Source: a virus
Length of the DNA: 56,310 bases
Strand: one strand, 5' to 3'
IMG/VR virus record: IMGVR_UViG_3300022562_001240
The translations under genes and the position numbers were made by a program. The notes under the pieces were generated by a model. The model worked only from the letters and a program-made list of their open reading frames with translations, ran no database searches and was not told the DNA's origin. Shown one piece after another: positions 10,343 to 41,984 of this stretch (within the stretch, counting starts at the first letter, position 1; every line of letters begins with the position of its first letter).

Positions 10343-10665
10343 TCACCTGTTTTTGTCTCTCCGCTTTTTCTTGCCCTTGCCTTGATTTGCCATGGCTTTC
10401 TTGATGAGTCCGGTCGGAGCCTTGACACGTTCGCCACGTTGAAGCTTTTCTTCCAGCAATTCCATCTGGAGCTTCTTCACTGCGGCCTTCCGCTTCTTAC
10501 GCTGCTTCTCAGACTTGCTTTCGTAGAACTGGTGTTCCTTGAAATCGTGCATGATGCCAGCGTTGCTCACTCTCCGCTTGAACTCAGTGAACATTTCCTT
10601 GAAGTTCTTGTGGGGATCGTTGTACTTCTTCTTGAGTTCAACTCTTACTCGTGTGGCATTAGCCA
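10343..10665 (-). CDS. rpsU: ribosomal protein bS21
   Basis: MANATRVRVELKKKYNDPHKNFKEMFTEFKRRVSNAGIMHDFKEHQFYESKSEKQRKKRKAAVKK matches the S21 pattern (FxxFKR...G...E...FYEKPS..R.RK). Start placed at the internal ATG at 10665, which has an AAGGAG ribosome-binding site 7 nt upstream. Confidence 0.75.
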
Positions 10666-10727
10666 TGGTCAGTCTCCTTACTTGTGATGCCTCATCATAG
10701 CGATTGGGCGAAGCCCATAGTAGATCG

Positions 10728-11858
10728 CTATTTGCTCTTAGACGAGTTGATGAAAGTGACGCCCAAGCGTCGAGCCTTCCGTTGCCGAACCGTATCATAT
10801 GATACCGTCTCATATGACTCGTTCGTCGATCCCCATTCCTGACCTGCAAGCGTTGGAGCGAACTCTTTCAACCTGACGATGATCCCGTCAATGATGCTGT
10901 TCTTCCAATCGCTCGGCTCGCCAGCCATGAGCATCGTCGAGAACGACCACAGGTATTGCTTCGGGCTTAGGCAACACAAGTCGTCAATCTCATACCCTTT
11001 GTGCTCCATGTATCTCTGTCGCTCGTCAACGACCAAGAATGGAGTCCTAGCCGCAATGGCTAAGTTGGATATCCCGGAATGCACATCCAGTACCAGCCCG
11101 ACATACCGCATCGCCGCCAAAACGTCTGTGACGTTGCGTGGCACCAAGTAGATGCAACGCTGGGCGAATTCTGTGGACATGTCATATGTGAACCAGTTCT
11201 GATATACCACCGGAACAAAGTCTGCCGCCAACAACTCCTCAATCAACGTCTCCCAAAACAGCTTGGGAACCGTAAGGTTCGTTGCCTTGCCTTTCTGCCA
11301 CGACCACATCCTTGTGGTAGGGTAGATGAAGACTTTGCGTCCACTCTTCCTCGACATCTCAGTCAAGAAGTTCTGTGAAAGCTTGTTGGCAGACGGTATC
11401 TCGGGCAAGTATCTTCTAATGTCCGGGAATGTTTCAAAGTATTTCGCAGTAAGCCCAAAGTCGTACAGTTCTTTAAGGTCACGCATCGTGACAATTCTTA
11501 CAGACTCCATGAGCCTGTGAGTCAGTTCTGTAGCCAAAGCACTCGTATTGTAAAAGTTATTAGCTTCTGATGCAAGTGTTTTTGCCACAGATTCGTCGTC
11601 TAAACACCAATACTCGTCCACATATGGGAAGAGCCCCTGAAGGCCCGGCCAAGAGCAAAGTATCAGATACTTGCCTGTAAGCTCCTTATATGGCCTCAGA
11701 AGTAGGGAGGAGAGGACGAAAGCCGATCTGAGATCTCCATAGAAGGGCATTGCGACGACGTTCGACGGGACCGAAGGCATGTTCTTTTCCTTATAGAACT
11801 CCCTTCGATAGCCGGTGCGTTCCGCTACCCTCTGAATGAAATCACTTGTTTGGCTCAT
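10728..11858 (-). CDS. GT9-like glycosyltransferase (heptosyltransferase family), paralog A
   Basis: 376 aa. The C-terminal DVHSGISNLAIAARTPFLVV resembles the GT9 D-SG-MHLAAA-G-P-V-L motif. Weak call. Confidence 0.4.
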   Translation of the reverse strand: MSQTSDFIQRVAERTGYRREFYKEKNMPSVPSNVVAMPFYGDLRSAFVLSSLLLRPYKELTGKYLILCSWPGLQGLFPYVDEYWCLDDESVAKTLASEANNFYNTSALATELTHRLMESVRIVTMRDLKELYDFGLTAKYFETFPDIRRYLPEIPSANKLSQNFLTEMSRKSGRKVFIYPTTRMWSWQKGKATNLTVPKLFWETLIEELLAADFVPVVYQNWFTYDMSTEFAQRCIYLVPRNVTDVLAAMRYVGLVLDVHSGISNLAIAARTPFLVVDERQRYMEHKGYEIDDLCCLSPKQYLWSFSTMLMAGEPSDWKNSIIDGIIVRLKEFAPTLAGQEWGSTNESYETVSYDTVRQRKARRLGVTFINSSKSK

Positions 11859-17775: not shown

Positions 17776-18207
17776 TCAGATTTCAATGGTGGACTTGAAG
17801 GTGTTTGTTTCGGGATCAAATTTGAGAGTTGTGATCAATTCCCAGTGCGGGTCGGCCTTCGGGACGTACTCTTTTTGTGTGTAGAACATGGCTTCTATGA
17901 CGAATTCGTACTCTTTTGCCGCCACTTCGTCATCTGACATGCCCGCCAGAAGATCCTCGCACATCTCCCGACAAATCCGGTAGCAATCCGGCATCCGGGC
18001 GCAATGGATCTTGTTCATAACCATCGAAGCCTGAAACGCCTTGTCAATCTTCAGCAGATTGATGATGTCTCGCTTCTCAGGGCCATCGCCGAAAATAGCG
18101 ACGGCAGAGAACTTCGCCATCACCTGCCCAGCTTTCGGGCCGTGCTTGCGGGTGTCGAAGAAATAGTCGTGAAAATTGCTGTCGTCGATGATGACTTCTT
18201 CTGTCAC
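17776..18207 (-). CDS. hypothetical protein (143 aa)
   Basis: Its start overlaps the dnaE fragment stop by 4 nt. Confidence 0.45.
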   Translation of the reverse strand: MTEEVIIDDSNFHDYFFDTRKHGPKAGQVMAKFSAVAIFGDGPEKRDIINLLKIDKAFQASMVMNKIHCARMPDCYRICREMCEDLLAGMSDDEVAAKEYEFVIEAMFYTQKEYVPKADPHWELITTLKFDPETNTFKSTIEI

Positions 18208-21086
18208 AGATCCTCCAGAATGTCGAAGCCTTCTTCGAAGGTCAGGTCCGTCAGGATCGACTCATCGGGCTTCTCAGGCTTGGGTATCGTCTTCATTACT
18301 CTGATGCGATAATCCTCATCTTTCGGCGGCAGTGTGTTCCGCTTATGCTTCGGAACGCTGTCGAAGGTGAAAGTGTTATATCCACCAGATGGGGGCCTCA
18401 TGCGAACTTTCAGCAGAGCACCCTTCTTCAATTCGTCCTGCCATCTGGTGTAGTCGTCTGACCAGATATTCATCTTGGCCTGCCGACTATTCGCATCCTC
18501 AAATTCAACAGAGTAAAAAACGACACCATTCTTGCTGGTTCTTTTCCGAACCGACAAGATCTTCACTTCGATGGGCGCAGGGGCGTCACCATCTTTGTCG
18601 CATTCTTCAAGGAAGTAGTCGATGGTGCGACCAGTGAAATCTGGACTCGATTCCAATTCATGATTCCATTGGAAACCATAGTATTGAGACTCGGCCATCG
18701 GATATGTCCGCTGGTCAAAGACCATCATGTAGTCATTCAGCACGGCTACTTCTTCTTCGTCCAACTTCACCGACGCCGCATTGAACCCATCCATCGTGAT
18801 CGGATTCTCATCATCGTCCTTCTCATTCTCCTCGAATCGACGCACGCTGGTTGCTCGTTTGTTCGACAAATCGCTGAGCATCTTCGCCACAGAAACCTGT
18901 CGCACTCGATCCTCACCCTTGTACTTGTAGGGCACGTCACGGACGATATGTTCAAAGCGTTCTTCCCAGAGCTTCTCAGCCTCTTCAGTGAAGCGAGCCA
19001 TCTTATCGAAGTCGGGATCGCTCTCAGTGATCTCAGTGAGAAGCAACTCACGCAATTCTTCATCCTTCTTGACCATCGAGCCTTCGAAGCGTTGTTGACG
19101 CTGCCGACGCTTGGTGATTTTGTCTTTGAAGAACTCATGGAACTTCCGCAAATGTTCTCTGTCATAGTGCGGCTCCAGTTCGTCGAACACGCCCAGAGCG
19201 ATGAGGGCTTTGAGCGGCGCACCATCCGTTCCAAATTTTGTAAGGAAGTCCGGGAAGTCCTTGTACGGCTGATTCTCCACGATGCGATCAGCCACCGCTT
19301 CCCCGATGCCCTTGATGTTCTTGAATCCGAAGTAGACCTTCCCATCAGCGATGTTGAAGTTCATCTTCGACTTGTTGATGTTCACCGGACAAACCTCAAT
19401 GCTATGTTTCTTGGCATCCAGTTTGTACTCACGGAACTTCTCGTGATCCTTCTCACACATCAGCGTGGCTGCATAGAACTCCAGAGGATAATGCGCCTTC
19501 AAATACAGCAGTCGTGACGAGATGTAGGTGTAAGCACAAGCATGGGACCGGTTGAACCCGTATTCGGCGAATGACTCAATTTGATCCCAGAGATCACTGA
19601 CGAACTCCAGATTCGCCCCGAGGTTCTTCTGGCCGTTCGTCAAGAACATCTCTTTGTACTTGGCGAACTGAGACACCTTCTTCTTTGAGATGGCTTTACG
19701 CACTTTCTCAGTGTGCATGTCAGGAATGTTCCCGACGATACGCAAGATGTCCATGACTTGTTCTTGGTACACAAGAACGCCGTAGGTCTTGCCGAGACTT
19801 TGTTCCATGATCGGATGGATGTTATATGGCTCGCCGCCCTCACGGTCGCCATCACGCCACTTCTTGCGTTTGCAGTAGCGGGCGTCCATCCCCATGTTCA
19901 ACGGGCCGGGACGATAGAGAGCCGAATAGGCCACCAGATCTTCGAAGCTGGTCACACCACCACGCTTCACCAGCTTGCGAATACCTTCGCCGTCAAACTG
20001 GAAGATACATCGCAGGTCGGCTTTGTTAGCCATCTCAATCGCAGCAGGATCATTGAGATAAGAGATGTCAGACCAATCGGTGTCCCCCTCTCTGGCACAG
20101 ATGGATGTAAGACCATATCGCTTCTTCACGAGTTCTGCCGCCAGAGCGATCTGCATGAGGTTGTTGATGACCAGAAGGTCGAACTTGATCAAGCCCACCG
20201 GCCCAAGGTCTTGATGGGCGAGGCCCTCAGACCATGCCGAGCAGATTACACCGTTGGGATGCTGCTTGTTGACCTTCCGCACTTCGAGCGGCACGAAACC
20301 ATCGATTCGCTTACTGGAGATAATCAGACCTCCAGCATGGACGCCAGAGTGAGTGTTGCGGCCCTGAAAGAGTTTTGCCGCTTCGGCGATCTCTGGGTTC
20401 TCTTCGCAGTAGAGGGCAAACTTCACATATGCGGTGTCGGCAGGGACGCTGCCTTTGGCTTTCCGAAGTTCAGAGAACTTCTGAACCCAATCCACATCGC
20501 CGGTCTCCAACTCCTTCTTAATCTCATCCTGCTCTTCTTTGGTGGCGATCTGGAAGGTGGCGATTTCAAAGATCTTGTCCCACTCCAGCGGCTTGCCGTC
20601 GTCATCCTTATCTTCAAGCATCGACGTGATGCCTTGAATCTCATGAATGTCAGCCCCATGCACACGGGCCATATCCAAGATGGATGACTTGATGCCCGCC
20701 GTTCCGTAGGTGCCGATCTCACAAACCTTCTCTTGGCCGTAGGCTTGAGCCGCCCACTGCTCTTTGAGGTAGTCTCGCACCGGCTTCAAGAAGTCGATGT
20801 CGATATCGGGGAACTCGCCCTGAATCCAAGTGTTGGGCCGCTCGATGTCGAACTGTCCTGTGAGATCCAACAGGTAGTCGATGAGGTTGTTGTGTTCGTT
20901 CTCTGGGAAGATTAAGTTTTCCGCCCGAAACTTATCGTGAAGGCCAAGAAGGTACTCATGCTCAGCCTGAGCATCGATTTCCTTAAGCTCTGACTTCAGC
21001 CGTTCCTTGTACCTGACATCCTGCATCAAGCCTCGCTTCTCCATAGATGCAAGGCACAAGCGGATTAGCTTGTCTCGTTCCTTCAT
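18204..21086 (-). CDS. dnaE: DNA polymerase III alpha subunit (DnaE-type), C-terminal fragment: palm catalytic site, fingers, beta-binding and OB regions
   Basis: 960 aa. Contains FPDIDIDF (catalytic Asp pair), GRNTHSGVHAGGLIIS, IKFDLLVIN (FDFLGL-like) and YGFNRSHACAYTYIS (FNKSHAAAY-like), all in the DnaE order. Confidence 0.85.
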   Translation of the reverse strand: MKERDKLIRLCLASMEKRGLMQDVRYKERLKSELKEIDAQAEHEYLLGLHDKFRAENLIFPENEHNNLIDYLLDLTGQFDIERPNTWIQGEFPDIDIDFLKPVRDYLKEQWAAQAYGQEKVCEIGTYGTAGIKSSILDMARVHGADIHEIQGITSMLEDKDDDGKPLEWDKIFEIATFQIATKEEQDEIKKELETGDVDWVQKFSELRKAKGSVPADTAYVKFALYCEENPEIAEAAKLFQGRNTHSGVHAGGLIISSKRIDGFVPLEVRKVNKQHPNGVICSAWSEGLAHQDLGPVGLIKFDLLVINNLMQIALAAELVKKRYGLTSICAREGDTDWSDISYLNDPAAIEMANKADLRCIFQFDGEGIRKLVKRGGVTSFEDLVAYSALYRPGPLNMGMDARYCKRKKWRDGDREGGEPYNIHPIMEQSLGKTYGVLVYQEQVMDILRIVGNIPDMHTEKVRKAISKKKVSQFAKYKEMFLTNGQKNLGANLEFVSDLWDQIESFAEYGFNRSHACAYTYISSRLLYLKAHYPLEFYAATLMCEKDHEKFREYKLDAKKHSIEVCPVNINKSKMNFNIADGKVYFGFKNIKGIGEAVADRIVENQPYKDFPDFLTKFGTDGAPLKALIALGVFDELEPHYDREHLRKFHEFFKDKITKRRQRQQRFEGSMVKKDEELRELLLTEITESDPDFDKMARFTEEAEKLWEERFEHIVRDVPYKYKGEDRVRQVSVAKMLSDLSNKRATSVRRFEENEKDDDENPITMDGFNAASVKLDEEEVAVLNDYMMVFDQRTYPMAESQYYGFQWNHELESSPDFTGRTIDYFLEECDKDGDAPAPIEVKILSVRKRTSKNGVVFYSVEFEDANSRQAKMNIWSDDYTRWQDELKKGALLKVRMRPPSGGYNTFTFDSVPKHKRNTLPPKDEDYRIRVMKTIPKPEKPDESILTDLTFEEGFDILEDL

Positions 21087-23126: not shown

Positions 23127-23898
23127 CTTGACGAGGCACCTTTCCCTCATCCCACAACGACTGAATGGGAGAGATGATTGATGGCAAAGATGGATCTCCA
23201 TAGACCCTGAATACTGTTGGGAAATGCTGAAGATACAACGCCGAGTATTCATCCAGATAGTCCTCGATGGTACAATCTGTCATCAAAAACCCCTCTGAGA
23301 ACATCCGTTGTCCATTATCTTGATGGTGAAGCAGTTCGCCAAAGCGTTTCTTGACTTTCTCTAGCGACCTATAATGGCATATGCCATTGGAAACAGCCGC
23401 CCCTTTCGTTTGGACAACAATAGTCTGCCTTTTCTTTCCACGCATAATTTTTTTGGAGAAATACATCGGCCCACAAACACTACACAAGTAATCACACCTT
23501 TTGTTCTCCAACATCCTAATCAATTCTGCATCAAATCCATTCAGAGTCGGGATGTAGTCGTCCTCCATCAAGATGTAGTAGTCAAACTGAGAGCCGTACT
23601 GATCAAAGATGCGGGAGTATTGGCCGTATGAGTAGCCCTTGTTTGGAGTGCGGACAACATGAATAGGGACACCTGACTTCAGTTGAGACAGGCTATTCAT
23701 GAATGAAGTGTATCTCCCGCTCTCCTTTGGATTCTCGGGCCAACCCACTGTGATTTGATCCAGATTGTGTTGAATCGAATCTAAGCGGGCCAGATGTTCT
23801 TCGATGTAGCAACGCCTTTCATCGAAACCGCATCTGACTCGCTTGCCGCTCCATGTGGCAATCATGTAGTTTGTACGCATATCGTATGTACGATACAA
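23110..23898 (-). CDS. hypothetical protein (262 aa), possibly a glycosyltransferase
   Basis: Contains an EDD acidic motif (ILMEDDYIP); no firm family assignment. Confidence 0.4.
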   Translation of the reverse strand: MYRTYDMRTNYMIATWSGKRVRCGFDERRCYIEEHLARLDSIQHNLDQITVGWPENPKESGRYTSFMNSLSQLKSGVPIHVVRTPNKGYSYGQYSRIFDQYGSQFDYYILMEDDYIPTLNGFDAELIRMLENKRCDYLCSVCGPMYFSKKIMRGKKRQTIVVQTKGAAVSNGICHYRSLEKVKKRFGELLHHQDNGQRMFSEGFLMTDCTIEDYLDEYSALYLQHFPTVFRVYGDPSLPSIISPIQSLWDEGKVPRQVIVSK

Positions 23899-23914
23899 AT
23901 TTTGGACTGGCGCA

Positions 23915-23955
23915 CGAAAAAACCCGCTTCCCCTTTGCTGTTGGGGAAGCGGGTT
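23915..23955 (-). terminator. rho-independent terminator downstream of the tmRNA-like gene
   Basis: 13-bp stem AACCCGCTTCCCC / GGGGAAGCGGGTT with a 9-nt loop, followed by UUUUUU on the minus strand. Confidence 0.65.
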
Positions 23956-23968
23956 CTTCTAACTTGAG

Positions 23969-24348
23969 TGGACCGGACGGGATTCGAACCCGTGTCTTGC
24001 TCTGCCGTCAAAGCGGCGTCTACGATCATGTCTCTCGATTTGAGTTGTCGGCCAGCCGGTCGCTCATGAGAGCACAGCTACCATGCCAGCTTAGTCGATT
24101 TGAGTTTCGCCCATCTCTCCTACGACTCGGAGATTCAGGACTATCCTGATGGCGGTACGTCGCAGACCTATCAGGCATCGGTCATTGACGCTTCGGACGG
24201 GCCTAGCCCGTCACTGCTTACGCAGCCATGCGAAGAGGAGTCGAAGTTTCGACAATTATGGTTTTGAATGACTTTTAACGTGGCCCGTCATTCAACCACG
24301 GATCGCAGCCATCTTCTCAGAACAGCCAATCGATTCCAATTCCAGCCC
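23969..24348 (-). ncRNA. ssrA: tmRNA-like gene (transfer-messenger RNA)
   Basis: The 3' end is GGGUUCGAAUCCC (T-arm), then CCGGUCC and a discriminator A. The 5' end GGGCUGG pairs with that strand using two G-U wobbles. It is followed by GAAUUGGAAUCGAUUGG, which resembles the tmRNA 5' consensus GAUUCUGGAUUCGACGGG. An internal frame GAA ACU UCG ACU CCU CUU CGC AUG GCU GCG UAA would encode the tag ETSTPLRMAA, ending Ala-Ala-stop. No 5' acceptor partner for a normal tRNA lies within 90 nt. Confidence 0.5.
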
Positions 24349-24670
24349 AAGTTTTCAAAGATCAAGCCACCAGCCTGCCTTACCTGCACGTTGCCATCGT
24401 GTGCTATAGTCAGGGAGCCCCTGCCGTCATCGCAGTTCTCCCTCCAAGCCGAGGCGACCGGCTTTTCAGGTATGCAGACACCTTCACAGCCTTGCGGCTC
24501 CAGCGGGTGACTAAATCCAGTTTTGCCTCGGAGAGCACTGCCGAAGGACGGAAACTGGAAACATCCCTTCGATCACGGCTCTTTCCCCGAGGGGCCTGTA
24601 CGCTAGGCTCTCCCCTTTCGGGGTCGCTTCGGTCAGGTACTCTACATAGTATGGCACGGCCCGATTTCAG

Positions 24671-24898
24671 TCAAGCCGCTTCCCACATTTTCCTGCACTT
24701 GTCGAGCAGTGCGGGGTCTTTCGGAATTGCCTTGCGGATCTTCCCTTCTGTCTTGGCCTTCTCCATCGGGCAAGGATCGGTGTCCTTGTGGCGTCGGGGA
24801 TTCCGGCACTCGCAATGGCATCGAAACTTGCACCGAGGCGGCTCCTCAAAGAGTTGCCAATCGACCACGAAGACAGGTAGCATTTTGCATGTCAACAT
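24671..24898 (-). CDS. small Cys-rich protein (75 aa)
   Basis: GGAGGTG ribosome-binding site 5 nt upstream of the ATG at 24898. Contains CKFRCHCECRNP...CPMEK...CRK. Confidence 0.4.
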   Translation of the reverse strand: MLTCKMLPVFVVDWQLFEEPPRCKFRCHCECRNPRRHKDTDPCPMEKAKTEGKIRKAIPKDPALLDKCRKMWEAA

Positions 24899-24961
24899 GA
24901 TGCACCTCCGTTTGTGCGAGTTTCTTAATCATCTGTAATATAGCACAAACGAAAGAAAAAG

Positions 24962-29839: not shown

Positions 29840-31249
29840 TTAAGCTGCATCCGCATGTGGGATCGGCTGCAAGCTGTGTCGAATCTTCATCTGCTTACCG
29901 CCACGAGCCGGGCTCAAGAAACGACTGAATCTCAAGTCGTTGATGATTGGCTCCACATCATGCAATCGCAGGCAGTAAGCCACCAGTGAACCGCAAGCCG
30001 AACCACGGCCCGGACCCACGGCTTCTGAGCCATCGCCGAACCCAACAATGCTGGGGCCGACATGGCGAGCTTCATCTGTCATCTGTTTCTGAATCAGGAA
30101 GTAGCTGGAGAAGCCCTTCTCACAGATCAGGTCGTACTCTTCCCGGATGCGGGATGAGTATTCCTTGGTGGCTGGACAACCTCGGGCCTTGAAGCCTCGC
30201 AGGGTCTCTTGCCATAGAAGGTCATCGGCATCTGGAATCTTCGGGAGCTTGATGTCCCTGTCGATCTCAACGCCCTTTGCTTTCTCACAGATGGCGATGG
30301 TGTTTGCTTTGGCTTGTTTGAAGATCTCGTAGTCGATGATGTCTTTGTACTTCAACTCCCACATGGCGTTGAGTTCGTCTTCTGACTTCAGCCACAGATT
30401 GGTGTCCTGAAGCTCAAAGAGATCATCGGCTTGACCGGAATCGATCATGGCCTGCACTTCTTGAATCGTGCGTTTGTTTTGCTGCATCAGCATGAGTCGC
30501 TGATTGTGACTGTGCTCTTTCTTGATCATCGGGAGACCGTACTTCTCGTGTGCCCGAATGAGGAAGGCGTTGTACGGCCCCTGCATCTTCCAGTCGAGCA
30601 TCATCATTTCAAGGTAGAAGTTGTCTCGACCGAGCATGTCGATGTAGTATTCCAACATTTGGAATCCCGCCTCATCGCCGCCCTCAAAGAAGGCTGTGGC
30701 TATTTCGCTGATGCCACAACCACTGGTGAAAATGATGCCTTCCTTGTGTTCTCGGAGAGCATCATGGTTGATTCGAGGGCGATAGTAGTATCCGTGAATC
30801 CACGCCCACGACGACAACCGAACGAGGTTTTGGTAGCCGATGTTGTTATAGGCAATAGCGAGCAGATGACATGATTTGCGGAAGATCTTCTGCTCTGGTG
30901 TTTGGGCTTTCGTCTCGGCATTGGGATCGCCAAGACTCTTGTAGAACTCAGCCGTATCAGAACGAGTGTTGGATTTGGGCTGCATCCGATTGACATACAA
31001 CTCGCAACCGAACAGCGGGTACAAGTTGTGCTTCTCTGCTTGTTCGATCTGCTGGGGAACTGCGCCCATAACCCCGTGATCGGTAATGCAGAGATACTTC
31101 TGGTTGATCTCCTTCATCCGCTGGGCATACTCCCACACCATGGCAAAGCCATCGAGAAGAGAGAAATCCGAGTGTCGGTGAAGATGCTCAAAGCCCATAA
31201 TCGGATGGTGCATTACTCGTCGCCTTCCTTGGTTCCGTTTTGTTGCCAC
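29840..31249 (-). CDS. dnaE: DNA polymerase III alpha subunit (DnaE-type), N-terminal fragment: PHP domain, thumb and start of the palm
   Basis: 469 aa. FEHLHRHSDFSLLDG and ITDHGVM (PHP motifs), then GPGRGSACGSLVAYCL. It ends at ...DLRFSRFLSPARGG, the position just before the catalytic PDxDxDF that opens the second fragment. Confidence 0.85.
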   Translation of the reverse strand: MATKRNQGRRRVMHHPIMGFEHLHRHSDFSLLDGFAMVWEYAQRMKEINQKYLCITDHGVMGAVPQQIEQAEKHNLYPLFGCELYVNRMQPKSNTRSDTAEFYKSLGDPNAETKAQTPEQKIFRKSCHLLAIAYNNIGYQNLVRLSSWAWIHGYYYRPRINHDALREHKEGIIFTSGCGISEIATAFFEGGDEAGFQMLEYYIDMLGRDNFYLEMMMLDWKMQGPYNAFLIRAHEKYGLPMIKKEHSHNQRLMLMQQNKRTIQEVQAMIDSGQADDLFELQDTNLWLKSEDELNAMWELKYKDIIDYEIFKQAKANTIAICEKAKGVEIDRDIKLPKIPDADDLLWQETLRGFKARGCPATKEYSSRIREEYDLICEKGFSSYFLIQKQMTDEARHVGPSIVGFGDGSEAVGPGRGSACGSLVAYCLRLHDVEPIINDLRFSRFLSPARGGKQMKIRHSLQPIPHADAA

Positions 31250-31975: not shown

Positions 31976-32659
31976 CTACTCGGTGCTCCTTAAAGAATCA
32001 AGGTCAGGATAATCGCTGCTTCCCAGAATCCCATCTGCCAAACCATAAAAAACGGCTTCTTCGGCTGACATGTACCAATCGACCTCATCTTTAAGTTTGC
32101 GGTCAAAAAATTTGTATGCCGTATCGTAAGTGGCCGTCTTCTTCCTCTTAAAGAATTCTGCTGTTTCTGAGGAAATGGCTTTTTCGGCAAAGATCTGCAA
32201 CATACGCTTGCAGGCCCGCTCTTGGAACTCGGCTTCGTTTTTCAGAGCGTAGGGATGCACCATTGAGCCTCCCGAGTATCCGTGGTGCATCAAGAAGTGG
32301 CAGTCTGGCATCATGATTCTGAGGTCTGCCGCTTGGAAGATGATGCCGCTCATAGAAGATGTCTGGGAGTATCCCAACATTGTGATCTGGCTGACTGCAT
32401 ACTCGATAGAATTGAAAACCGCCATGCCATTGTCCCAGCACCCACCGGCAGAGTGGAGATGGACCAAAATGGGTTTGTTGGGCGACTGATCGAGCAAATG
32501 CAAATTCTTAATAAAAGTCGTGGCTTGCCGGTAATCGACTCCCGGTTCTGACTCGTCGTCCTTGACATAGTAGCTGTGAAGGTAGATTTCCCTTCGATTG
32601 AGATTCACCTGATGATTGTGGATGTCATAAAGAACTTGATCCTTGGACTGACGGGCCAT
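31976..32659 (-). CDS. ClpP-family serine protease (possible prohead / maturation protease)
   Basis: ILVHLHSAGGCWDNGMAVFNSI (cf. ClpP INSPGGSVTAGMAIYD), catalytic Ser in GYSQTSSMSG, His in FLMHHG, and C-terminal AEEAVFYGLADGIL (cf. EAVEYGLVD). Confidence 0.65.
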   Translation of the reverse strand: MARQSKDQVLYDIHNHQVNLNRREIYLHSYYVKDDESEPGVDYRQATTFIKNLHLLDQSPNKPILVHLHSAGGCWDNGMAVFNSIEYAVSQITMLGYSQTSSMSGIIFQAADLRIMMPDCHFLMHHGYSGGSMVHPYALKNEAEFQERACKRMLQIFAEKAISSETAEFFKRKKTATYDTAYKFFDRKLKDEVDWYMSAEEAVFYGLADGILGSSDYPDLDSLRSTE

Positions 32660-33540: not shown

Positions 33541-33861
33541 TTAGTCTCCCATGATCAGCGATCCGAGATCATCGTCGATGCCAGCAGGCTTGACGTATCC
33601 GGTCGCTTCGAGTTTCTTTTGTGTTCGATAGGCATTCCGAAGACTCATACAACAATCTTCGGCACGATCCCATCCTGCCGTCTTCCAGACATCTTTGAGT
33701 GGGCCGACGTTCTGCCAGCCCTTCTCTGTGAGGTATTCAGCCATCACTTTCTCTTCGGCCTGACGAGCCTCTCGCTTCTTTTCCTTTTGCTTCTCTCGAC
33801 GGCGGGTCTTAGAAGCAGGTTCGTTGGCTCGCTTGGCACGTTGCTTTTTGGTTAGTGTCAT
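33541..33861 (-). CDS. hypothetical protein with a basic N-terminus (106 aa)
   Basis: Lys/Arg-rich N-terminus; overlaps the spoVR stop by 4 nt. Confidence 0.4.
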   Translation of the reverse strand: MTLTKKQRAKRANEPASKTRRREKQKEKKREARQAEEKVMAEYLTEKGWQNVGPLKDVWKTAGWDRAEDCCMSLRNAYRTQKKLEATGYVKPAGIDDDLGSLIMGD

Positions 33862-35459
33862 TTCAGGAAATCCTTCTCATATTGTTCTCTGGACATGATG
33901 TGGACATCACTATCCATGTTCGGACCATCGCAGACCAAGACGTATTCTTCCCCGTCAAGGTTCTGAGATCCCAGAACAACCACATTCTGCCAGATCATGT
34001 GAATTGAAGTGAGAACCTCTGTGGCGTACTTGTGGTACAGCGGTCGTCCATCAGCGTAGTGCTGCATGAAGAACCAGCCTTTGCCCAAGTGGTTCGGGTC
34101 GGTCAACCTGATGTCAGGCAAACCGCCATTACAGTAGCGTTGGAGCATCTGTTTCTTGACTTCCTTGAAATCACGAGACGTGATCTTCCACTCGCCCGTT
34201 GACATGCGGCGGTAGGTGTAATACTGCATCTTCTCGGCGAACTCTGGAGTGAAGAATTCGTTGATCAAGGTGTAGTCGTTGTAATACTTCCTGACTTCGA
34301 AGACCTTCTCCATGCCGAGCCCAAGTTTCTTATCCCACTTGGCCTTCTCCCGCATGTTGGTGCATTCTTCCCATTCCTTGCCGAACTTGCCCTTGTTCCA
34401 TCGATCTTCGATGTCCAAGAGAAGCTCGAAGCCCAGCTTGTATGGGTTCTGACTCCACTGACCTCCCAAGACTCGCATCTTGTGTTCGGCATAGTGCCAG
34501 ATACCAGCCGCTTCATCGTCCTGTCCGAGTGAGGCAAGGCCCTCCCGACAGAGTAGGTGGTAATCGACGAAACTGGCCCAACCTTCATTGATCATCTTCG
34601 TTTGTCGCTGAGGTTGGAAGTACATGGACTCATCATAGAGCATCGAGATGATGTCTTGCTGCCACGGCTTGAGTGGAGCATTATTCTTCAAGAATCCCAT
34701 GATGTCTCGATCAGCACGACCGAACAGGCCAAGGAATTCCGAAGCTTCTTTCTTCTCAATTCTCTCGTGTTCCTTCTCGATGTACGAGTCGGGGTTGACC
34801 CATTCGTCCATGTAGTCATGAGTGGATTTCAAACGTCTGGGAAAATGGTATTTTCTTTCATCCCTGACATTCTTGTTTTCAATCTTCTTTCGCTTCCATG
34901 CCTTCTGAGGATCAATGAGCGTTTCGATTCGCATCACATGGTCGATGAACTCTGTGACACGCTCGCCGCCCCAACGCTTCATGTACTGACGAATTCGAGT
35001 GCTGTGATTCGCCAGCTTGTTCATCATGTTTTCGTCAGTCGGCCCAAAGAAAATGTTGTTCTTGAAGAAGTCGTTGTGGCCGATGGCGTGACAGATAACG
35101 TCCACGTTGTCTACCAACGTGTTCGAGTCCATGCAGTAGATGTAACATGGATTGGTGTTGATCACCATTTCCGAGATACGGTACTGGTTGTATTCGTAAC
35201 CACGACTCATTTCCTCATATTCCATTCCCCACTTCCAGTGTGGGTATCGGACAGGGAAACCGCCGTAGCTGGCAAGCTCAGCCATTTCGTCGTAGCGGAC
35301 AAATTCAACGATGATGGGATAGTAGTCCAACCCCATATCCCTGCAAGCCTTCTCCATCTGAGGAAGCAGTTCCTCCACTTCCTTGTGGATCTTCAGACCG
35401 GGAATGTTGTTGTCACCAACCAGAATTGGTGTCCCGCTCATCATGTTAGATTTTGACAT
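33858..35459 (-). CDS. spoVR: SpoVR-family protein (YcgB-like)
   Basis: 533 aa. ...YPHWKWGMEYEE...NTNPCYIYCMDSNTLVDNVDVICHAIGHNDFFKNN... matches the SpoVR core. Confidence 0.8.
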   Translation of the reverse strand: MSKSNMMSGTPILVGDNNIPGLKIHKEVEELLPQMEKACRDMGLDYYPIIVEFVRYDEMAELASYGGFPVRYPHWKWGMEYEEMSRGYEYNQYRISEMVINTNPCYIYCMDSNTLVDNVDVICHAIGHNDFFKNNIFFGPTDENMMNKLANHSTRIRQYMKRWGGERVTEFIDHVMRIETLIDPQKAWKRKKIENKNVRDERKYHFPRRLKSTHDYMDEWVNPDSYIEKEHERIEKKEASEFLGLFGRADRDIMGFLKNNAPLKPWQQDIISMLYDESMYFQPQRQTKMINEGWASFVDYHLLCREGLASLGQDDEAAGIWHYAEHKMRVLGGQWSQNPYKLGFELLLDIEDRWNKGKFGKEWEECTNMREKAKWDKKLGLGMEKVFEVRKYYNDYTLINEFFTPEFAEKMQYYTYRRMSTGEWKITSRDFKEVKKQMLQRYCNGGLPDIRLTDPNHLGKGWFFMQHYADGRPLYHKYATEVLTSIHMIWQNVVVLGSQNLDGEEYVLVCDGPNMDSDVHIMSREQYEKDFLK

Positions 35460-36454
35460 TACTCGGTTCTCCTCCAGATATCATCCACATCATACGAGAT
35501 ATCTGTAATTAACTCAAGCTCTTCCCGCACTCTTCTTATAGGTTCCGACCAATCTCCTTCGGTCGATTGCCAGAAGAGTTTAACCGTGTCGTACCACATG
35601 GTTGTTTTAGAACGATCCCACAAAGGATTATCGTCGGATTTCATCAATCCAAAAGTTGGTTTGTTCATGGTGCCTGCCAAATGAAGGACAGATGAGTCTG
35701 TCGCAATGACCGCATCCATGGCGTCGATCAAAATTGCCACGTCGTTGAAATCGTATGTTGATGGCATCAACATTGATTCGGTGTTGGGCAAGGTGTAAAT
35801 GTTCCATCCCGATTCTTTAAGGACGGCCATTTGTTCCTCGGGGATTTGTTTGACGTGCAAACCACAAGCGGGCCGATTGGGCTGTATTGCCGCCTCGCCG
35901 TGAGGCAGAATCTCTGGCTGCCAAGGAACTTTGGTCTTCAGAATGACCGATCTGTCGGCGGGATAGTAGTGATCCAACTTGAGGCCACTCAACAGAGCCG
36001 GGATGCACATGATGTTGGTGTGGTAATCGCAAAGGACATGCTGATTGGTGAACTCATCCACGAACCAAACATCTTCCATCAATTTCTTTAAGGCTTCGTA
36101 GGCCGAGTAGCAATTCAGCACGATGCGACATTCCCATTCCCGCTTCAAAGCGGCGAGATATCTAAAGAAATTGATGGTGTTGCCGATGTTGAAGTCCGTG
36201 AACACTTCAATGGACGATCCACGCAGGGACTCCCCCCGCCAGTTGCGGCCAAAGTGTTTGGAAAGGTCTGGACGTGATGCGCCCAGTGTGTCTGAAACAA
36301 TCAGGCTGTAGAGTTCGCCGATGAGTTCGTGACTGGGATCTAATTTGCGGATAACTTCCAACAACTTGACGGCTTTATCGGGCAAGCCGATCCAGTAGTA
36401 GTTGTTGACAGTCGCCAGACCTTGATCAAGATACTGTTTGGAGTCCCGTGCCAT
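35459..36454 (-). CDS. GT9-like glycosyltransferase (heptosyltransferase family), paralog C
   Basis: VIATDSSVLHLAGTMNKPTFGL matches the GT9 D-SG-MHLA-A-G-P motif better than paralogs A and B do. Confidence 0.5.
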   Translation of the reverse strand: MARDSKQYLDQGLATVNNYYWIGLPDKAVKLLEVIRKLDPSHELIGELYSLIVSDTLGASRPDLSKHFGRNWRGESLRGSSIEVFTDFNIGNTINFFRYLAALKREWECRIVLNCYSAYEALKKLMEDVWFVDEFTNQHVLCDYHTNIMCIPALLSGLKLDHYYPADRSVILKTKVPWQPEILPHGEAAIQPNRPACGLHVKQIPEEQMAVLKESGWNIYTLPNTESMLMPSTYDFNDVAILIDAMDAVIATDSSVLHLAGTMNKPTFGLMKSDDNPLWDRSKTTMWYDTVKLFWQSTEGDWSEPIRRVREELELITDISYDVDDIWRRTE

Positions 36455-37289
36455 GAATGCTGTCCCTCAACTCTCGAATTTCCTGATGCGTCGGATCGTC
36501 GCTTTCATCGAGATTGACAAGGAACTCGTCGGACACTTCTGGCCTTCCGCCCTTGGGATAGCAGAAAATGTTCAACGAATTGCCTGCATTCAAGACATCC
36601 ACCTTGTGATACTTGAAGTTGTCTGGATTGTAGACAGGAGTTTCATGCAACTCCCAGTCATAACCCACATGCTCCACGAATCTCAAAATGTCTTCCCTGT
36701 TGTCGGCAAAGTTCACATACAACAGAGGGGTGGACCTATCGATGGTGCGACGGCAACCATTCAGTACAGAAAGCTCCATGCCCTGCACTGACACCTTAAT
36801 CAACTTGGGCTTCGCCAAGTTGACATCATCGATGGCAATTGATGCTACCGGATTATCACATTTACGTCCATCTCGGTCCTTGGCATTCAACAATGTCGCC
36901 AAGCTGATTTGTGATAGATCGACTTCACCATTGATGTCAACCGATGGGAAGTAACAGACGCCTTTGCTGGAATCTGTCACCGAACGGTTGAATGCTTGGA
37001 TGTTGGTGATCTGGTTGAGAGCGATGTTGCCGCACAACATGAAGTACAGGAACGTGTGAGCCTCAATTGCCAAGACGTAACCCTCTGAGGTAACGTGCTT
37101 CGCCAAAGGAATCGTGATCGATCCAATGTTGGCCCCAACATCAACGACCACATCACCCTTGTCAGTCAGCTTCTTCAAGAATTCTACCTTGAAAGAATTG
37201 ACTTCTCCGTAGGTGTCCAGAGAACGACCTACCAATTGATCGTTCTCTAAGAACATCATGTCTCCATACTTCGTGCTGCTGACTTTCAT
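36426..37289 (-). CDS. FkbM-family methyltransferase, copy 1
   Basis: VVDVGANIGSITIPLA plus the family-typical downstream architecture. Paralog of 52872-53705. Confidence 0.65.
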   Translation of the reverse strand: MKVSSTKYGDMMFLENDQLVGRSLDTYGEVNSFKVEFLKKLTDKGDVVVDVGANIGSITIPLAKHVTSEGYVLAIEAHTFLYFMLCGNIALNQITNIQAFNRSVTDSSKGVCYFPSVDINGEVDLSQISLATLLNAKDRDGRKCDNPVASIAIDDVNLAKPKLIKVSVQGMELSVLNGCRRTIDRSTPLLYVNFADNREDILRFVEHVGYDWELHETPVYNPDNFKYHKVDVLNAGNSLNIFCYPKGGRPEVSDEFLVNLDESDDPTHQEIRELRDSIHGTGLQTVS

Positions 37290-38530
37290 GCTGCTGCCTC
37301 TCTCTTATCGTTTTCTTTGCCCAAGATCTTACGGATGGCTTCGATGATCTGCTCGTTGCGATCTTCTTCGCTGAGATTGGGGGCATAACCCCAGTTCCCG
37401 AATCCGAAGTTCCCATCATCGTTATCCGATTCATCGGGGCCGACATTGGCCGTCTCGATATAAGAAGAGTCCAACTTTCCGCCTTTTAGGGCGTTGTCGA
37501 GGTGTTGTTTCACACTATCTTCGTATCTCCAAGAACAAACCTGCGTCATGCCCAACAGATTAACCTTGCTGGGACCGAGTTCTTCTTTGATGATCTTGAT
37601 CATCCGGCTGTTGTCGTCGCCCCAGTTGTCACCATCTGAGAAGTAGAAGATGTAGACGTTGTACTTCTCTGGCGGATATCTGTTTTCCAACTGATCCGCA
37701 ATGGCCCGGAACGCCGACGAACACATTGTTCCACCACCATAACGATAGGTGTAGAACGCCTCTTCGTTGACTTCCTGTGCTCTGGTGTCGTGGACAAAGT
37801 AGCAACGATCCACCTTGTCATAGAATTTTCTGATCCAGCAGTCGATCCACCAACTCATGTCGCTGACAATATCGCAGCGATAGTCGTCCATCGACGCCGA
37901 GCAGTCTCGGGCGAAGAAGATGACAGCATTCGAGGAAGGAATCTTGATCTGTTTGTACTGTCGATATCTGAAGTCGTTGTTGATGGGCGTCAGCAATCGA
38001 ACTGGCACCTTGCAGCCCGGCACCCACTGGAGGTTCTCCAGTTCGCCGGTCATCGACAATCGCTTCAGTGCTTCCTTCATCGTTCGACGAGGATGGCGCA
38101 ACGCTTGCAAACCGACCCGAGAGATATCGTTGTACTTGATCTTGATCTCTTCGTAGGTTTCATTGGGCTTGGGCCTCATGCGAGGCAACTTCAGTTCGTC
38201 CTGCATGAACCGCAGAACGTCATCCATATCGATAGTGATCTGGATGCCTTCACCGGGATCTTCCCCAGCTTTGTTGCCACCCTTGCCCGGTTGTGGGTCT
38301 CGCCCAACAACGTCGCCTTCTTTTCCCGGCCCACGACCGACACCTTCCCCGTTGCTTCCAAACACGAAGCGAGGAATCTCGATCTGCGGGATAGAGATCG
38401 TCATCTTGCCGCCCTTGGGCCGCTGACGAACGATGGACCCCGACTTGATCAGTCTTTTCAATTCACGTCGGGTGCGTCCAGAGATCACATCTCTGAACTT
38501 CTTATGATCTTCTTGGATTCTCTTTGGCAT
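37286..38530 (-). CDS. yhbH: YhbH/YeaH-family protein (DUF444, vWA-like)
   Basis: N-terminal FRDVISGRTRRELKRLIKSG...ISIPQIEIPRFVFG, then a Gly-rich segment, then DCSASMDD and FSDGDNWGDD. Confidence 0.75.
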   Translation of the reverse strand: MPKRIQEDHKKFRDVISGRTRRELKRLIKSGSIVRQRPKGGKMTISIPQIEIPRFVFGSNGEGVGRGPGKEGDVVGRDPQPGKGGNKAGEDPGEGIQITIDMDDVLRFMQDELKLPRMRPKPNETYEEIKIKYNDISRVGLQALRHPRRTMKEALKRLSMTGELENLQWVPGCKVPVRLLTPINNDFRYRQYKQIKIPSSNAVIFFARDCSASMDDYRCDIVSDMSWWIDCWIRKFYDKVDRCYFVHDTRAQEVNEEAFYTYRYGGGTMCSSAFRAIADQLENRYPPEKYNVYIFYFSDGDNWGDDNSRMIKIIKEELGPSKVNLLGMTQVCSWRYEDSVKQHLDNALKGGKLDSSYIETANVGPDESDNDDGNFGFGNWGYAPNLSEEDRNEQIIEAIRKILGKENDKREAAA

Positions 38531-38610
38531 GATGCTCCCCTTGTGTAAGAAAAGAGGGCGATAGCGGTAGAGTAACGATCAACCACCACTACCGCCCCCA
38601 ACGTCCGTCA

Positions 38611-41952: not shown

Positions 41953-41984
41953 GAAAAGCCGCCAGAAATGGCGGCTTTTTTCAT
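41953..41984. terminator. bidirectional rho-independent terminator between convergent genes
   Basis: AAAAGCCGCC-AGAAAT-GGCGGCTTTTTT: a GC stem with U/A tracts on both sides. Confidence 0.6.

Follow-up and report, generated by a model that had tools for sequence, protein, structure and literature searches.

The window, a stretch of 56,310 nucleotides from the virus record IMGVR_UViG_3300022562_001240, very probably carries on its minus strand, at 23969-24348, a functional and standard one-piece tmRNA gene of a huge bacteriophage. A sequence-only reading had proposed a tmRNA-like gene with a tRNA-like 3' end at this place and had named ARAGORN and covariance models as checks. Both return the gene, and covariation among relatives upholds it as well. 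ARAGORN calls a tmRNA at 23968-24348 (minus strand) with the tag VETSTPLRMAA, and the Rfam model RF00023 matches 23966-24348 (minus strand) with 88.5 bits against a gathering cut-off of 47, at an E value of 4.5e-33 and over positions 1-374 of the 374 of the model. An E value of this size across the full model places the set of features far beyond chance. All sequence features listed in the earlier reading were located where it had placed them, when read on the minus strand (Table 1). Rescue, charging and tagging as functions of this RNA would follow from its sequence and from the knowledge of bacterial tmRNAs.

Table 1. Features of the tmRNA locus in the window (tmRNA position p corresponds to window position 24349-p).
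Feature	Window position	Strand	Basis
Candidate sigma-70-type promoter, TTGACT-17 nt-TACTAT	24646..24674	-	Consensus scan
Presumed 5' leader of the precursor	24349..24640	-	Alignment with L010, L011 and L013
Mature one-piece tmRNA (ssrA-like), 380 nt to the discriminator A	23969..24348	-	ARAGORN, RF00023, covariation in 18 relatives
Acceptor stem, 5' strand GGGCUGG	24342..24348	-	Pairs with 23970-23976
PK1, CGUGG/CCACG crossed by GAAUGAC/GUCAUUC	24266..24300	-	91% and 82% paired
Tag reading frame, 11 codons VETSTPLRMAA and stop UAA	24218..24253	-	ARAGORN coding part 96-131; Rfam alignment
Extra 7-bp hairpin GACGGGC-UAG-GCCCGUC	24196..24212	-	Insert relative to the Rfam consensus in the RF00023 alignment
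PK2, GCGUC..GACC / GGUC..GACGU crossed by CCUGAU/AUCAGG	24145..24191	-	Covariation
PK3, UCUCC/GGAGA crossed by AGUCG/CGACU	24093..24133	-	Covariation
PK4, GCUGGC..GGU.GCU / AGC.ACC..GCUGGC crossed by CUCUC/GAGAG	24032..24090	-	Covariation
T arm ACGGG-UUCGAAU-CCCGU and acceptor 3' strand CCGGUCC	23970..23993	-	Covariation
Intrinsic terminator with U6 tract	23917..23959	-	RNAfold, -30.2 kcal/mol

The tRNA-like domain is complete. The RNA ends in ...ACGGGUUCGAAUCCCGUCCGGUCCA, and the canonical T arm, acceptor strand and discriminator A described for this end are all present on the minus strand. Here, the T arm occupies tmRNA positions 356-360/368-372 and carries a loop of the GUUCRANYC type, the acceptor 3' strand spans positions 373-379 and the discriminator A is the unpaired position 380 (window 23969). 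The distant GGGCUGG had been suggested to pair with the acceptor strand via two G-U wobbles. This pairing is confirmed and results in a 7-bp acceptor stem, GGGCUGG/CCGGUCC, in which G3·U70 and U5·G68 are the two G-U pairs. Likewise, GAAUUGGAAUCGAUUGG, which had been said to resemble the conserved 5' region of tmRNAs, is matched in the alignment with the conserved 5' part of the RF00023 model. The G3·U70 pair is the identity element for alanyl-tRNA synthetase and is GU in 18 of 18 aligned sequences. In the same alignment, four pair types occur at each of the covarying acceptor positions 4-6, and the T stem is paired at 100%, with all five of its pairs changing on both sides. The 3' CCA is unencoded in the window, where CUC follows the discriminator A, and an encoded CCA was found in none of the lineage members inspected. 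Membership in the family does not need an encoded CCA; it may also be added after transcription. With CCA unencoded, maturation of the tmRNA would depend on a CCA-adding enzyme.

The absence of a pseudoknot architecture had been given as an outcome that would speak against a tmRNA. All four pseudoknots were found, with PK1 before the tag frame, PK2-PK4 behind it and helix 2 enclosing them, and their pairing is supported by covariation. For this, 18 lineage members were aligned with MAFFT, and slid partners as well as shuffles served as controls. RNAalifold on these sequences reports compensatory changes in 45 of 61 pairs. For the full structure including PK1-PK4, 83.6% of the cells are paired in comparison to 33-46% with the partners slid, two-sided changes occur in 73 of 99 pairs, and none of 500 shuffles matches any of the observed measures. 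Helix 2 is 90-100% paired. The crossing helices of PK1, PK2, PK3 and PK4 are paired at 82%, 89%, 83% and 91%, respectively, with multiple compensatory changes in each. Two-sided changes are seen in 7/7 pairs of the crossing helix of PK1 (4/5 in its CGUGG/CCACG helix), in 4/5 pairs of that of PK3 and in 5/5 pairs of that of PK4. Judged from this alignment, every helix appears to be supported by covariation, the crossing helices included, and three first helices less well. These are the outer helix of PK2 (just 46% in indel-rich columns, with 88% for the inner one), the first helix of PK3 (50%, poorly aligned) and the outer helix of PK4, which together range from 46 to 58% on the automatic alignment. 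Since the columns are indel-rich, the low scores may reflect misalignment.

An extra feature of the RNA is a hairpin that follows the stop-codon hairpin and precedes PK2. Most relatives have it with a differing sequence, and in the MAFFT alignment it is 68% paired with two-sided changes in five of its seven pairs. A repeated element inside the molecule had also been described. Here, the two copies of AACUCAAAUCGA do exist, at 24106-24095 within PK3 and at 24046-24035 within PK4, and the probability that an exact 12-mer repeat arises by chance in about 380 nt is roughly estimated at about 0.004. It is not a separate element: in both pseudoknots, the 12-mer is made up of an A-rich linker and the first bases of the second helix's 3' strand.

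The mRNA-like domain holds a startless frame behind a UA(A/G)NN-type motif, which closes with a hydrophobic residue, two alanines and a stop. The end AUG-GCU-GCG-UAA (Ala-Ala-stop) noticed earlier is present, and the stop UAA (24220-24218) lies within the GUAA loop of a 5-bp hairpin at 24226-24213. The resume codon had to be corrected. A glutamate codon, GAA, had been proposed, and the reading UUGUC|GAA would be analogous to the GUC|GCA of E. coli. This was dropped, because in the relatives the codon aligned to the preceding GUC (24253-24251) encodes Ala (GCA or GCC) or Gly (GGC) and in each case stands behind a motif of the UA(A/G)UU type. ARAGORN as well as the Rfam alignment, which puts GUC on the consensus resume codon, agree with a frame reading UAAUU|GUC ... 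AUG GCU GCG UAA. The tag is therefore VETSTPLRMAA. The usual tmRNA resume codon is GCN (Ala), and GUC or GUU (Val) is found in about half of the phage lineage.

Coding constraint on the tag was followed in relatives collected via the polymerase and therefore independent of the tag. Nearly all variation in the final six codons is synonymous (CCU/CCG, CUU/CUC, CGC/CGA/CGU, GCU/GCC/GCA and GCG/GCU/GCA), PLR(M/L)AA is retained across the lineage, and indels in the tag frame comprise whole codons. Furthermore, the tag frame of the window is identical to that of L045, a relative which is otherwise diverged. Among the tmRNAs of 185,579 representative bacterial and archaeal genomes (one genome per species), no PLR(M/L)AA-type tag was found with the pattern CCN-CTN-CGN-ATG-GCN-GCN-TAA-GC, which covers Met only and leaves out TTR Leu and AGR Arg. 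The 15 matches to this pattern were discarded as chance matches, as 0 of 15 lie inside a tmRNA.

Since the scan found PLR(M/L)AA in no tmRNA of these cellular genomes, the phage tmRNA may mark rescued peptides differently. This leads to a second reading of a working tmRNA, which we consider unlikely. Here, the main role would be re-labelling, i.e., the RNA would compete with the host tmRNA and attach a phage-specific ...PLR(M/L)AA tag, which could route peptides to another protease or adaptor or alter how the host senses stalled ribosomes. That the lineage has evolved its own degradation tag, PLR(M/L)AA with an often valine-coding resume codon, marking peptides differently from the host, is likewise a doubtful proposal; if true, it would mean routing to a particular protease or adaptor, or an escape from host surveillance of stalled ribosomes. 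The synonymous variation of the tag and the genome scan fit such a role, and the tmRNA-like RNA of the mycobacteriophage DS6A is reported to inhibit the endogenous tmRNA in E. coli (PMC11915505). However, the tag keeps the generic -(M/L)AA of cellular tags, so that ordinary host proteases may read it, the scan covered one codon spelling with Met only and one genome per species, and the last codons also pair in the stop-codon hairpin, which accounts for some of their conservation at the nucleotide level. At 31976-32659, 8 kb from the tmRNA, lies a gene for a ClpP-family protein, which would fit re-labelling. The protein was not adopted as a dedicated partner protease, because it scores under every curated cut-off and its best PHROG families are annotated as head-maturation protease.

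Behind the gene, the 13-bp GC-rich hairpin with a U6 tract recognized in the sequence-only reading is confirmed as an intrinsic terminator. Its stem comprises the 13-bp core and, with an A-U extension, 17 pairs closing a 9-nt loop. A consensus terminator scan missed it due to a loop limit of 8 nt, and direct folding found it. By eye, nearly all 19 lineage members show a different hairpin followed by a T-run at the same place.

Upstream of the gene, the candidate promoter is located about 290 nt from the mature 5' end, and the conserved start of the leader, TACCTGACCGAAGC, follows directly behind it. At the matching place, a TATAAA box is seen in L011 and L010. Matches to the promoter consensus are no commoner than in shuffled sequence (1 found, 0.6 expected); the element is a putative tmRNA promoter proposed from sequence. 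The presumed leader holds a conserved hairpin at about 24562-24513, the alignment of which is 39% identical, as well as a window-specific insert of 149 nt (24360-24508) that folds at -55.9 kcal/mol. No other copies of the insert were found among the window and the relatives' sequences compared, and the leader has no match to an Rfam family. Under the doubtful proposal of a degradation tag evolved by the lineage, the conserved structured 5' leader could add a phage-specific control of tmRNA production. The plus-strand ORF 24399-24938, which overlaps the leader, was regarded as spurious: it has no Pfam or PHROG match, and the 149-nt insert would disrupt a conserved frame. The plus-strand ORFs 23853-24149 and 24100-24267 were treated as spurious solely for their overlap with the RNA gene.

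The insert directly upstream of the gene, together with a score of 88.5 bits that is lower than the 110-126 bits of several relatives, would fit an inactive passenger, a decaying copy once captured from a host and no longer functional. This is highly improbable, since every helix is paired in the sequence of the window itself, the tag frame is unbroken and the same as in the diverged L045, and no damage is seen in G3·U70, the T loop or the terminator. In addition, the changes across the lineage are compensatory and not random, and the leader insert lies outside the mature RNA.

The gene is embedded in a huge-phage genome (>200 kb). A polymerase protein identical to that of the window is recorded on a contig of 238,888 bp, and relatives are found on contigs of up to 693 kb. 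Many ORFs of the window match PHROG families. No capsid or terminase gene is present in the window, and therefore the assignment to a phage rests on relatedness and synteny. Here, the DnaE polymerase is split, and the tmRNA locus lies between its two halves in the window and in every relative examined. tmRNAs are located at the syntenic place in L007-L011, L013 and L014, and the same neighbouring genes surround 17 of the 19 metagenome tmRNA loci. The best GenBank phage match of the DnaE-like gene is LR756511.1, a 595-kb uncultured phage (41.6% identical), which has a tmRNA at the syntenic position (122 bits) with the tag ANPEFAMAA. Other translation factors co-occur with the tmRNA in the window: IF3 at 2008-2544 (161 bits, cut-off 60), S21 within 10343-10849 (40.1 bits, cut-off 28.95) and a peptide deformylase at 9488-10003, which reaches 54.3 bits in Pfam (cut-off 22.8) and stays under both NCBIfam equivalog cut-offs.

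A stand-alone tRNA fragment or an attachment-site remnant had been named as findings that would refute the proposal, and these are set aside by the full-length gene and its conserved syntenic position in related huge-phage contigs. The least probable reading is a bacterial ssrA, in which the window would be host chromosome beside an integrated element or the 3' part such a remnant: tmRNA genes are often integration sites for genomic islands (PMC11915505) and several temperate-phage records carry smpB at the record end, resembling host flank, but the gene has both its 5' and 3' halves intact, its neighbours are syntenic in many large phage-like contigs including the single-chromosome GenBank assembly of the 595-kb phage, the GC content is uniform (0.48-0.54), no integrase was found among the window ORFs scanned, and the tag occurs in the tmRNA of none of the representative cellular genomes scanned.

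A blastn search with the tmRNA against 50,697 GenBank phage records gave no match, and exact-pattern as well as protein-pattern scans of IMG/VR returned nothing, the lineage being absent from the collection scanned. The metagenome relatives were found with a broader sequence pattern, and an nhmmer profile served for the homologue search. ARAGORN detects 10 of the 19 lineage members; it reports no tmRNA in L001-L008, and Rfam found those of L007 and L008. RF00023 was run on eight of the 19, and all eight score above the threshold, including five that ARAGORN misses. Since ARAGORN was the tool used for the main survey of huge phages, the published counts of phage tmRNAs are probably too low.

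The partner protein SmpB was searched for as well. A Pfam search found no SmpB domain in the window ORFs scanned or in the fetched loci of the relatives, and tblastn with E. coli SmpB, a query that recovers annotated SmpB at 100% identity, gave no match to the window or to these loci. As none was found in the window, the tmRNA would have to rely on SmpB of the host or on a gene for it in another part of the 239-kb genome.

Mechanistically, the preferred reading as a standard rescue tmRNA would proceed as follows. A precursor would be transcribed, with the sigma-70-like element about 290 nt upstream as the probable promoter, RNase P would cut the 5' end, and the 3' trailer would be trimmed and CCA added, because it is unencoded. 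The host alanyl-tRNA synthetase would then charge the RNA with alanine via G3·U70. Together with SmpB, either of the host or of the phage from outside the window, the RNA would enter ribosomes stalled on broken or stop-less mRNAs. Translation would move to the tag frame, so that the stalled peptide gains alanine and VETSTPLRMAA and the ribosome is freed at UAA. The tagged peptides would end in AVETSTPLRMAA, and host AAA+ proteases reading the C-terminal -(M/L)AA would degrade them. The likely benefit for the phage would be a free and productive pool of ribosomes during infection, acting alongside the window-encoded IF3, S21 and peptide deformylase. The structural parts of the RNA are kept by compensatory change over a lineage of related phages.

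In comparison to the bacterial one-piece tmRNA (SsrA, RF00023), the full-length match to the model and the order of parts from acceptor stem to T arm are the same. In contrast to SsrA, the RNA is phage-encoded, has the additional 7-bp hairpin after the stop-codon hairpin, resumes at GUC (Val) with the tag VETSTPLRMAA, lacks an encoded CCA and apparently has a long 5' leader. A valine resume codon is shared with SsrA of Helicobacter pylori, which uses GUA; the tag and the organism differ, and there is no close sequence kinship. In SsrA of E. coli, GUA or GUC are functional, and valine resume codons are reported to work less well (PMC2862035).

tmRNA genes of huge phages are already known. Huge phages are reported to encode tmRNAs, SmpB, IF3, S21 and peptide deformylase (Al-Shayeb et al., 2020, Nature 578:425; PMC7162821), and these tmRNAs were found with ARAGORN and are given in the gene inventory, where structure and tags are not described. 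The genome sizes of >200 kb and the presence of IF3, S21 and peptide deformylase are the same here, and LR756511.1, only distant kin of the window phage, belongs to the same GenBank accession series as those genomes. The gene of the window adds a well-documented and well-characterised example to the few tmRNAs listed from phages. Within one widespread lineage of huge phages, the tmRNA belongs to the conserved core genes, stays in synteny and is not an occasional pickup. Its complete structure with four pseudoknots is under selection, and its tag is specific to the lineage. The current understanding of trans-translation is unchanged by this. What becomes testable is whether phages add rescue capacity or re-label stalled peptides, as well as the dependence on host SmpB.

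Other members of the family are known in diverging forms. The tmRNA-like gene of DS6A is also phage-borne; that version has no tag frame (PMC11915505), whereas the RNA of the window has a conserved tag frame and four pseudoknots. Intron-form tmRNA genes, with a group I intron in the T-loop, are described from bacteria and apparently not from phages (PMC11915505). The gene of the window is intronless. The tmRNAs closest to it, those of L011 and L013, have the same acceptor stem and agree with it in the sequence directly upstream, and in both a group I intron (RF00028, 88.7 bits) interrupts the T-loop.

The window carries a complete tmRNA. ARAGORN, run on the whole 56-kb window, reported this tmRNA as the single gene, and Rfam revealed RF00023, the tmRNA covariance model, as the sole family above threshold. 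Here, the match covers model positions 1-374 of 374 with 88.5 bits (E 4.5e-33) at a gathering score of 47. Both searches had been suggested by the sequence-only reading, which claimed a tmRNA-like gene, and all sequence features listed there are present on the minus strand. This includes the intrinsic terminator, a GC-rich hairpin followed by a U6 tract, which folds at -30.2 kcal/mol and was missed by a simple consensus terminator scan solely due to its 9-nt loop. The window RNA shows all of the testable features by which the standard one-piece tmRNA family is defined. The observation is thereby confirmed and its interpretation is supported, once the resume codon is corrected.

Features of the window and of the intron-split loci (L011, L013, relatives' loci in their own numbering)
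Feature	Position	Strand	Remark
tmRNA gene, ARAGORN	23968-24348	minus	tag VETSTPLRMAA
tmRNA gene, RF00023	23966-24348	minus
Acceptor 5' strand GGGCUGG	24348-24342	minus	sequence
Conserved 5' motif GAAUUGGAAUCGAUUGG	directly after GGGCUGG	minus	sequence
Resume codon GUC	24253-24251	minus
Tag frame end AUG-GCU-GCG-UAA		minus	sequence
Short hairpin after stop-codon hairpin	24212-24196	minus	insertion in RF00023 alignment
12-mer AACUCAAAUCGA	24106-24095, 24046-24035	minus	two copies
T arm ACGGG-UUCGAAU-CCCGU		minus	sequence
Acceptor 3' strand CCGGUCC, discriminator A	A at 23969	minus	sequence
GC-rich hairpin + U6 tract	~10 nt past discriminator	minus	sequence
Promoter-like match TTGACT-17-TACTAT	24674-24646	minus	consensus scan
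Presumed long 5' leader	24349-24640	minus	conserved with L010, L011, L013
Leader hairpin	~24513-24562	minus
149-nt leader insert	24360-24508	minus	window only; -55.9 kcal/mol
Mechanical ORFs over tmRNA or leader	23853-24149, 24100-24267, 24399-24938	plus
Translation initiation factor IF3	2008-2544	minus	161 bits vs. cut-off 60
Peptide deformylase	9488-10003	minus	Pfam 54.3 vs. 22.8; under both NCBIfam equivalog cut-offs
Ribosomal protein S21, N-terminal extension	10343-10849	minus	40.1 vs. 28.95
DnaE-like polymerase body (finger, HhH)	18204-21086	minus
Separate PHP/N-terminal polymerase part	29840-31249	minus
ClpP-family protein	31976-32659	minus	Pfam CLP_protease 70 bits; under every NCBIfam cut-off
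SpoVR	33858-35459	minus
DUF444/YeaH-like protein	37286-38530	minus
PrkA serine kinase	38611-40695	minus
ORF with TnsA-like endonuclease N-terminal domain and zinc-finger motif	49540-50235	plus
Metabolic genes	2558-4195, 41984-43351, 51874-52875, 44489-46088, 55714-56016
Intron-split tmRNA	L011, 5717-6323
tmRNA; intron	L013, 5243-5591; 5584-5810

The neighborhoods of relatives of the window's DnaE-like polymerase were scanned with Rfam, leaving out L012. In every scanned locus extending far enough upstream of the polymerase, a full-length tmRNA is present at the same relative position, with RF00023 scores of 114.3 bits (L007 and L008), 126.5 bits (L009), 110.8 bits (L010) and 122.2 bits (L014, the uncultured huge phage LR756511.1) as well as 60.1 bits for the interrupted genes of L011 and L013. 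Furthermore, a degenerate pattern spanning the tag end retrieved 70 metagenome loci, among which an nhmmer profile identified 19 tmRNAs of the window's type. At 17 of these 19, homologs of the window's neighbor genes were also found (AAA ATPase, DnaE body, Nfu-like protein, C92 peptidase, methyltransferase and PHP-polymerase part), while the remaining two loci are contigs of just ~1.1 kb. From this position and the shared neighbors it follows that the tmRNA belongs to the syntenic core genes of this lineage and is located between the split-polymerase halves, and that the lineage is one of phages. A host gene is rejected by this synteny, and an attachment-site remnant, which together with a stand-alone tRNA fragment had been named beforehand as a refuting outcome, by the full-length tmRNAs at the conserved place; either origin is poorly supported and extremely improbable.

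Structurally, 18 non-redundant lineage tmRNAs were aligned (A2, mean column identity 64%), for which RNAalifold yielded 61 nested pairs; at 45 of these, compensatory double changes are seen. For each pseudoknot, the second helix was written from the window's own sequence, and the full structure was then tested on these 18 sequences. Here, 83.6% of the cells are standard pairs vs. 33–46% with every 3' partner slid by 1–3 columns, both sides change in 73 of 99 pairs, and none of 500 shuffles matched any observed measure. The crossing helices of the pseudoknots PK1–PK4, whose architecture had been proposed as a check, are all supported: PK1 is 82% paired (7/7 pairs covary), PK2 89%, PK3 83% and PK4 91% (5/5 pairs covary). 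The acceptor stem, helix 2 and T arm are 90–100% paired, and G3·U70 is invariant in 18/18 sequences. The least secure parts are the PK2 outer stem, the PK3 first helix and the PK4 outer stem (46–58% paired), and these low values may stem from the automatic alignment of indel-rich columns. In contrast to the Rfam consensus, the lineage adds a short hairpin after the stop-codon hairpin. The repeated element noticed earlier inside the molecule is the 12-mer AACUCAAAUCGA, each copy of which consists of an A-rich linker and the opening bases of a crossing helix's 3' strand, one in PK3 (…AAAUCGACU) and one in PK4 (…AAAUCGAGAG); the lineage alignment shows both UCAAAUCGA blocks to be conserved.

The proposed tag frame and its Ala-Ala-stop end were borne out, but not the resume codon GAA (Glu), which is rejected in favor of GUC (Val) one codon earlier. 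ARAGORN starts the tag at GUC, the Rfam alignment places it on the consensus resume codon after a UAAUU aligned with the consensus UAAUU, and the relatives' codons point to the same position, being GCA or GCC (Ala) in L007, L014, L032, L056, L090 and L093 and GGC (Gly) in L034, L067 and L072. In these relatives, UA(A/G)UU or near variants (e.g., UAUUU, UAACU, CAACU, UAAAC) precede the codon. GUC or GUU is the resume codon in about half of the lineage members. A valine resume codon is likewise found in SsrA of H. pylori, there GUA in contrast to GUC in the window, and GUA or GUC function in E. coli SsrA (PMC2862035).

The window's tag VETSTPLRMAA is identical in the otherwise diverged L045. Further lineage tags are VENTTPLRMAA, VEETRTPLRMAA, VEETRPLRLAA, ANRNVAPLRMAA, ANGNVAPLRMAA, GNTVAPLRMAA, VNNSVPVRMAA and GNSNVVKFPAKSDLRLAA, and LR756511.1 has ANPEFAMAA. 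The metagenome pattern required R-(M/L)-A-A-stop, so that the tags of that subset are biased, whereas the polymerase-derived subset (window, L007, L009, L010, L011) is unbiased. In the latter, the last six codons vary almost solely at synonymous third positions and indels in the tag frame comprise whole codons, which is the signature of a translated frame. The two Ala codons are conserved partly because they pair within the stop-codon hairpin: a GCU→GCC change there is offset by GCAGU→GCGGU. The pattern CCN-CTN-CGN-ATG-GCN-GCN-TAA-GC gave 15 matches among 185,579 bacterial and archaeal species (one genome each), none of them in a tmRNA; as spelled, with Leu as CTN, Arg as CGN and an end in MAA, the tag is that of none of the represented cellular tmRNAs. 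Both the tmRNA structure and the tag frame are under selection, and a pseudogene is a poorly supported and very improbable reading.

The window is gene-dense, mainly on the minus strand and uniform in GC (0.48–0.54), and its predicted gene content is typical of a very large phage. Its replicative polymerase, of the DnaE type, consists of a PHP part and a body encoded ~9 kb apart, between which the tmRNA and about ten further genes are located, and this split and gene order are kept in L007 and L011–L013. The top GenBank phage match of the polymerase is the uncultured LR756511.1 (595,163 bp; 41.6% identity across 85% of the protein). In a large protein collection, an identical polymerase is listed for a 238,888-bp contig, and relatives with 55–80% identity for contigs as long as 693 kb. 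Since no capsid or terminase gene is present within the window, the phage assignment rests on relatedness and synteny. Several gene families of the window are known solely from the phage protein families (PHROGs). Some related polymerase proteins (P0017, P0060 and others) contain intein and LAGLIDADG domains within the body.

The window encodes many metabolic genes, among them a thiamine-pyrophosphate enzyme (acetolactate-synthase-like), an HldE-like bifunctional heptose kinase/adenylyltransferase, a GlpX-type fructose-1,6-bisphosphatase, DHFR, thymidylate synthase and thioredoxin; two dCMP deaminases are also present. PrkA, the DUF444/YeaH-like protein and SpoVR are clustered (33858-40695), and two small transferase genes separate the DUF444/YeaH-like gene from SpoVR. 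In bacteria, these three form a conserved operon associated with stress or sporulation, and they are unusual phage cargo. For the ClpP-family protein, the best PHROG families carry the annotation head-maturation protease. It could be either a prohead protease or a ClpP that has diverged, and no link of this protein to the tmRNA tag was established. The TnsA-like ORF lies in a short plus-strand island inside a mostly minus-strand region and may encode a nuclease of the homing or mobile-element type.

Established tmRNA biology suggests how the RNA would act. It would be matured by RNase P cleavage, 3' trimming and CCA addition, the latter two being required because the CCA is encoded in no lineage member (CUC, CUU, CUA or AUA follow the discriminator). 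Host AlaRS would charge it through G3·U70 and SmpB would bring it to ribosomes stalled at broken mRNA ends. The nascent chain would move to the tmRNA's alanine, translation would resume at GUC, the peptide would gain A-VETSTPLRMAA, the ribosome would terminate at UAA, and AAA+ proteases would degrade the tagged product. SmpB was not found in the window or the relatives' loci by domain scans or by tblastn with an SmpB query, validated by 100% identity to annotated records. A large phage of this kind has its own IF3, S21 and peptide deformylase and, in the course of infection, probably breaks down host mRNA or outcompetes it; freed ribosomes would protect the phage's own protein synthesis. The main rival explanation, in which the chief role of the phage RNA is to re-label stalled peptides by means of a lineage-specific tag, appears unlikely, although it is better placed than a pseudogene or a host origin.

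The translation genes of huge phages include tmRNAs, SmpB, IF3, S21 and peptide deformylase (Al-Shayeb et al., 2020; PMC7162821), and the window's IF3, S21 and peptide deformylase match this take-over set. A mycobacteriophage tmRNA-like RNA is listed in the tmRNA database (PMC11915505). Phage-borne tmRNAs have thus already been described and the window gene adds to a known type; the case is solid and cleanly resolved, yet a specialist would expect it for a huge phage. What is added is modest: within one widespread lineage of huge phages, the tmRNA is shown to be conserved in synteny and to have four covarying pseudoknots. Further additions are the conserved PLR(M/L)AA tag, the frequency of valine as resume codon, an intron-split version in close relatives and the incomplete detection by ARAGORN. 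ARAGORN detects 10 of the 19 lineage tmRNAs (window, L007–L011, L014, L032–L095), whereas the Rfam model, run on 8 of the 19, scored all above threshold (60–126 bits), including five missed by ARAGORN (L007, L009, L010, L011 and L013's duplicate). Surveys based on ARAGORN therefore probably undercount phage tmRNAs.

The intron-split version occurs in L011 and L013, the closest tmRNA relatives of the window, which share its acceptor stem GGGCUGG and upstream CTTTGAAAACTT. Here, a group I intron (RF00028, 88.7 bits) splits the T-loop. The 5' exon ends with ...ACGGGU(U) and the 3' exon restarts with (U)CAAAUCCCGUCCGGUCCA, the splice sub-site being approximate. Intron-form tmRNAs have been documented in bacteria (PMC11915505), whereas here this form is found in a huge-phage lineage.

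In nearly all lineage members, a separate terminator of hairpin and U-tract lies immediately downstream, and several have textbook TTGACA/TATAAT promoters 30–60 nt upstream of the tmRNA. A longer conserved leader is common to the window, L010 and L011. In the window, the promoter-like match lies just before the conserved leader start TACCTGACCGAAGC, which implies a precursor with a leader of ~290 nt; we infer a putative promoter and 5' leader of the tmRNA precursor. By eye, the stem of the leader hairpin seems to covary across the lineage, its closing stem being CCAGTT/AACTGG, CCGGT/ACCGG, CTCAGTT/AACTGAG or CTTGGC/GCCAAG depending on the sub-lineage. The 149-nt insert is located between this hairpin and the tmRNA and has no second copy among the sequences compared, and the leader matches no Rfam family. 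On the opposite strand, neither Pfam nor PHROGs gave a match for ORF 24399-24938 (179 aa), and compared with the relatives the insert would disrupt its reading frame, while the other two ORFs overlap the tmRNA gene itself. None of the three is likely to be a gene, but annotation pipelines could call them.
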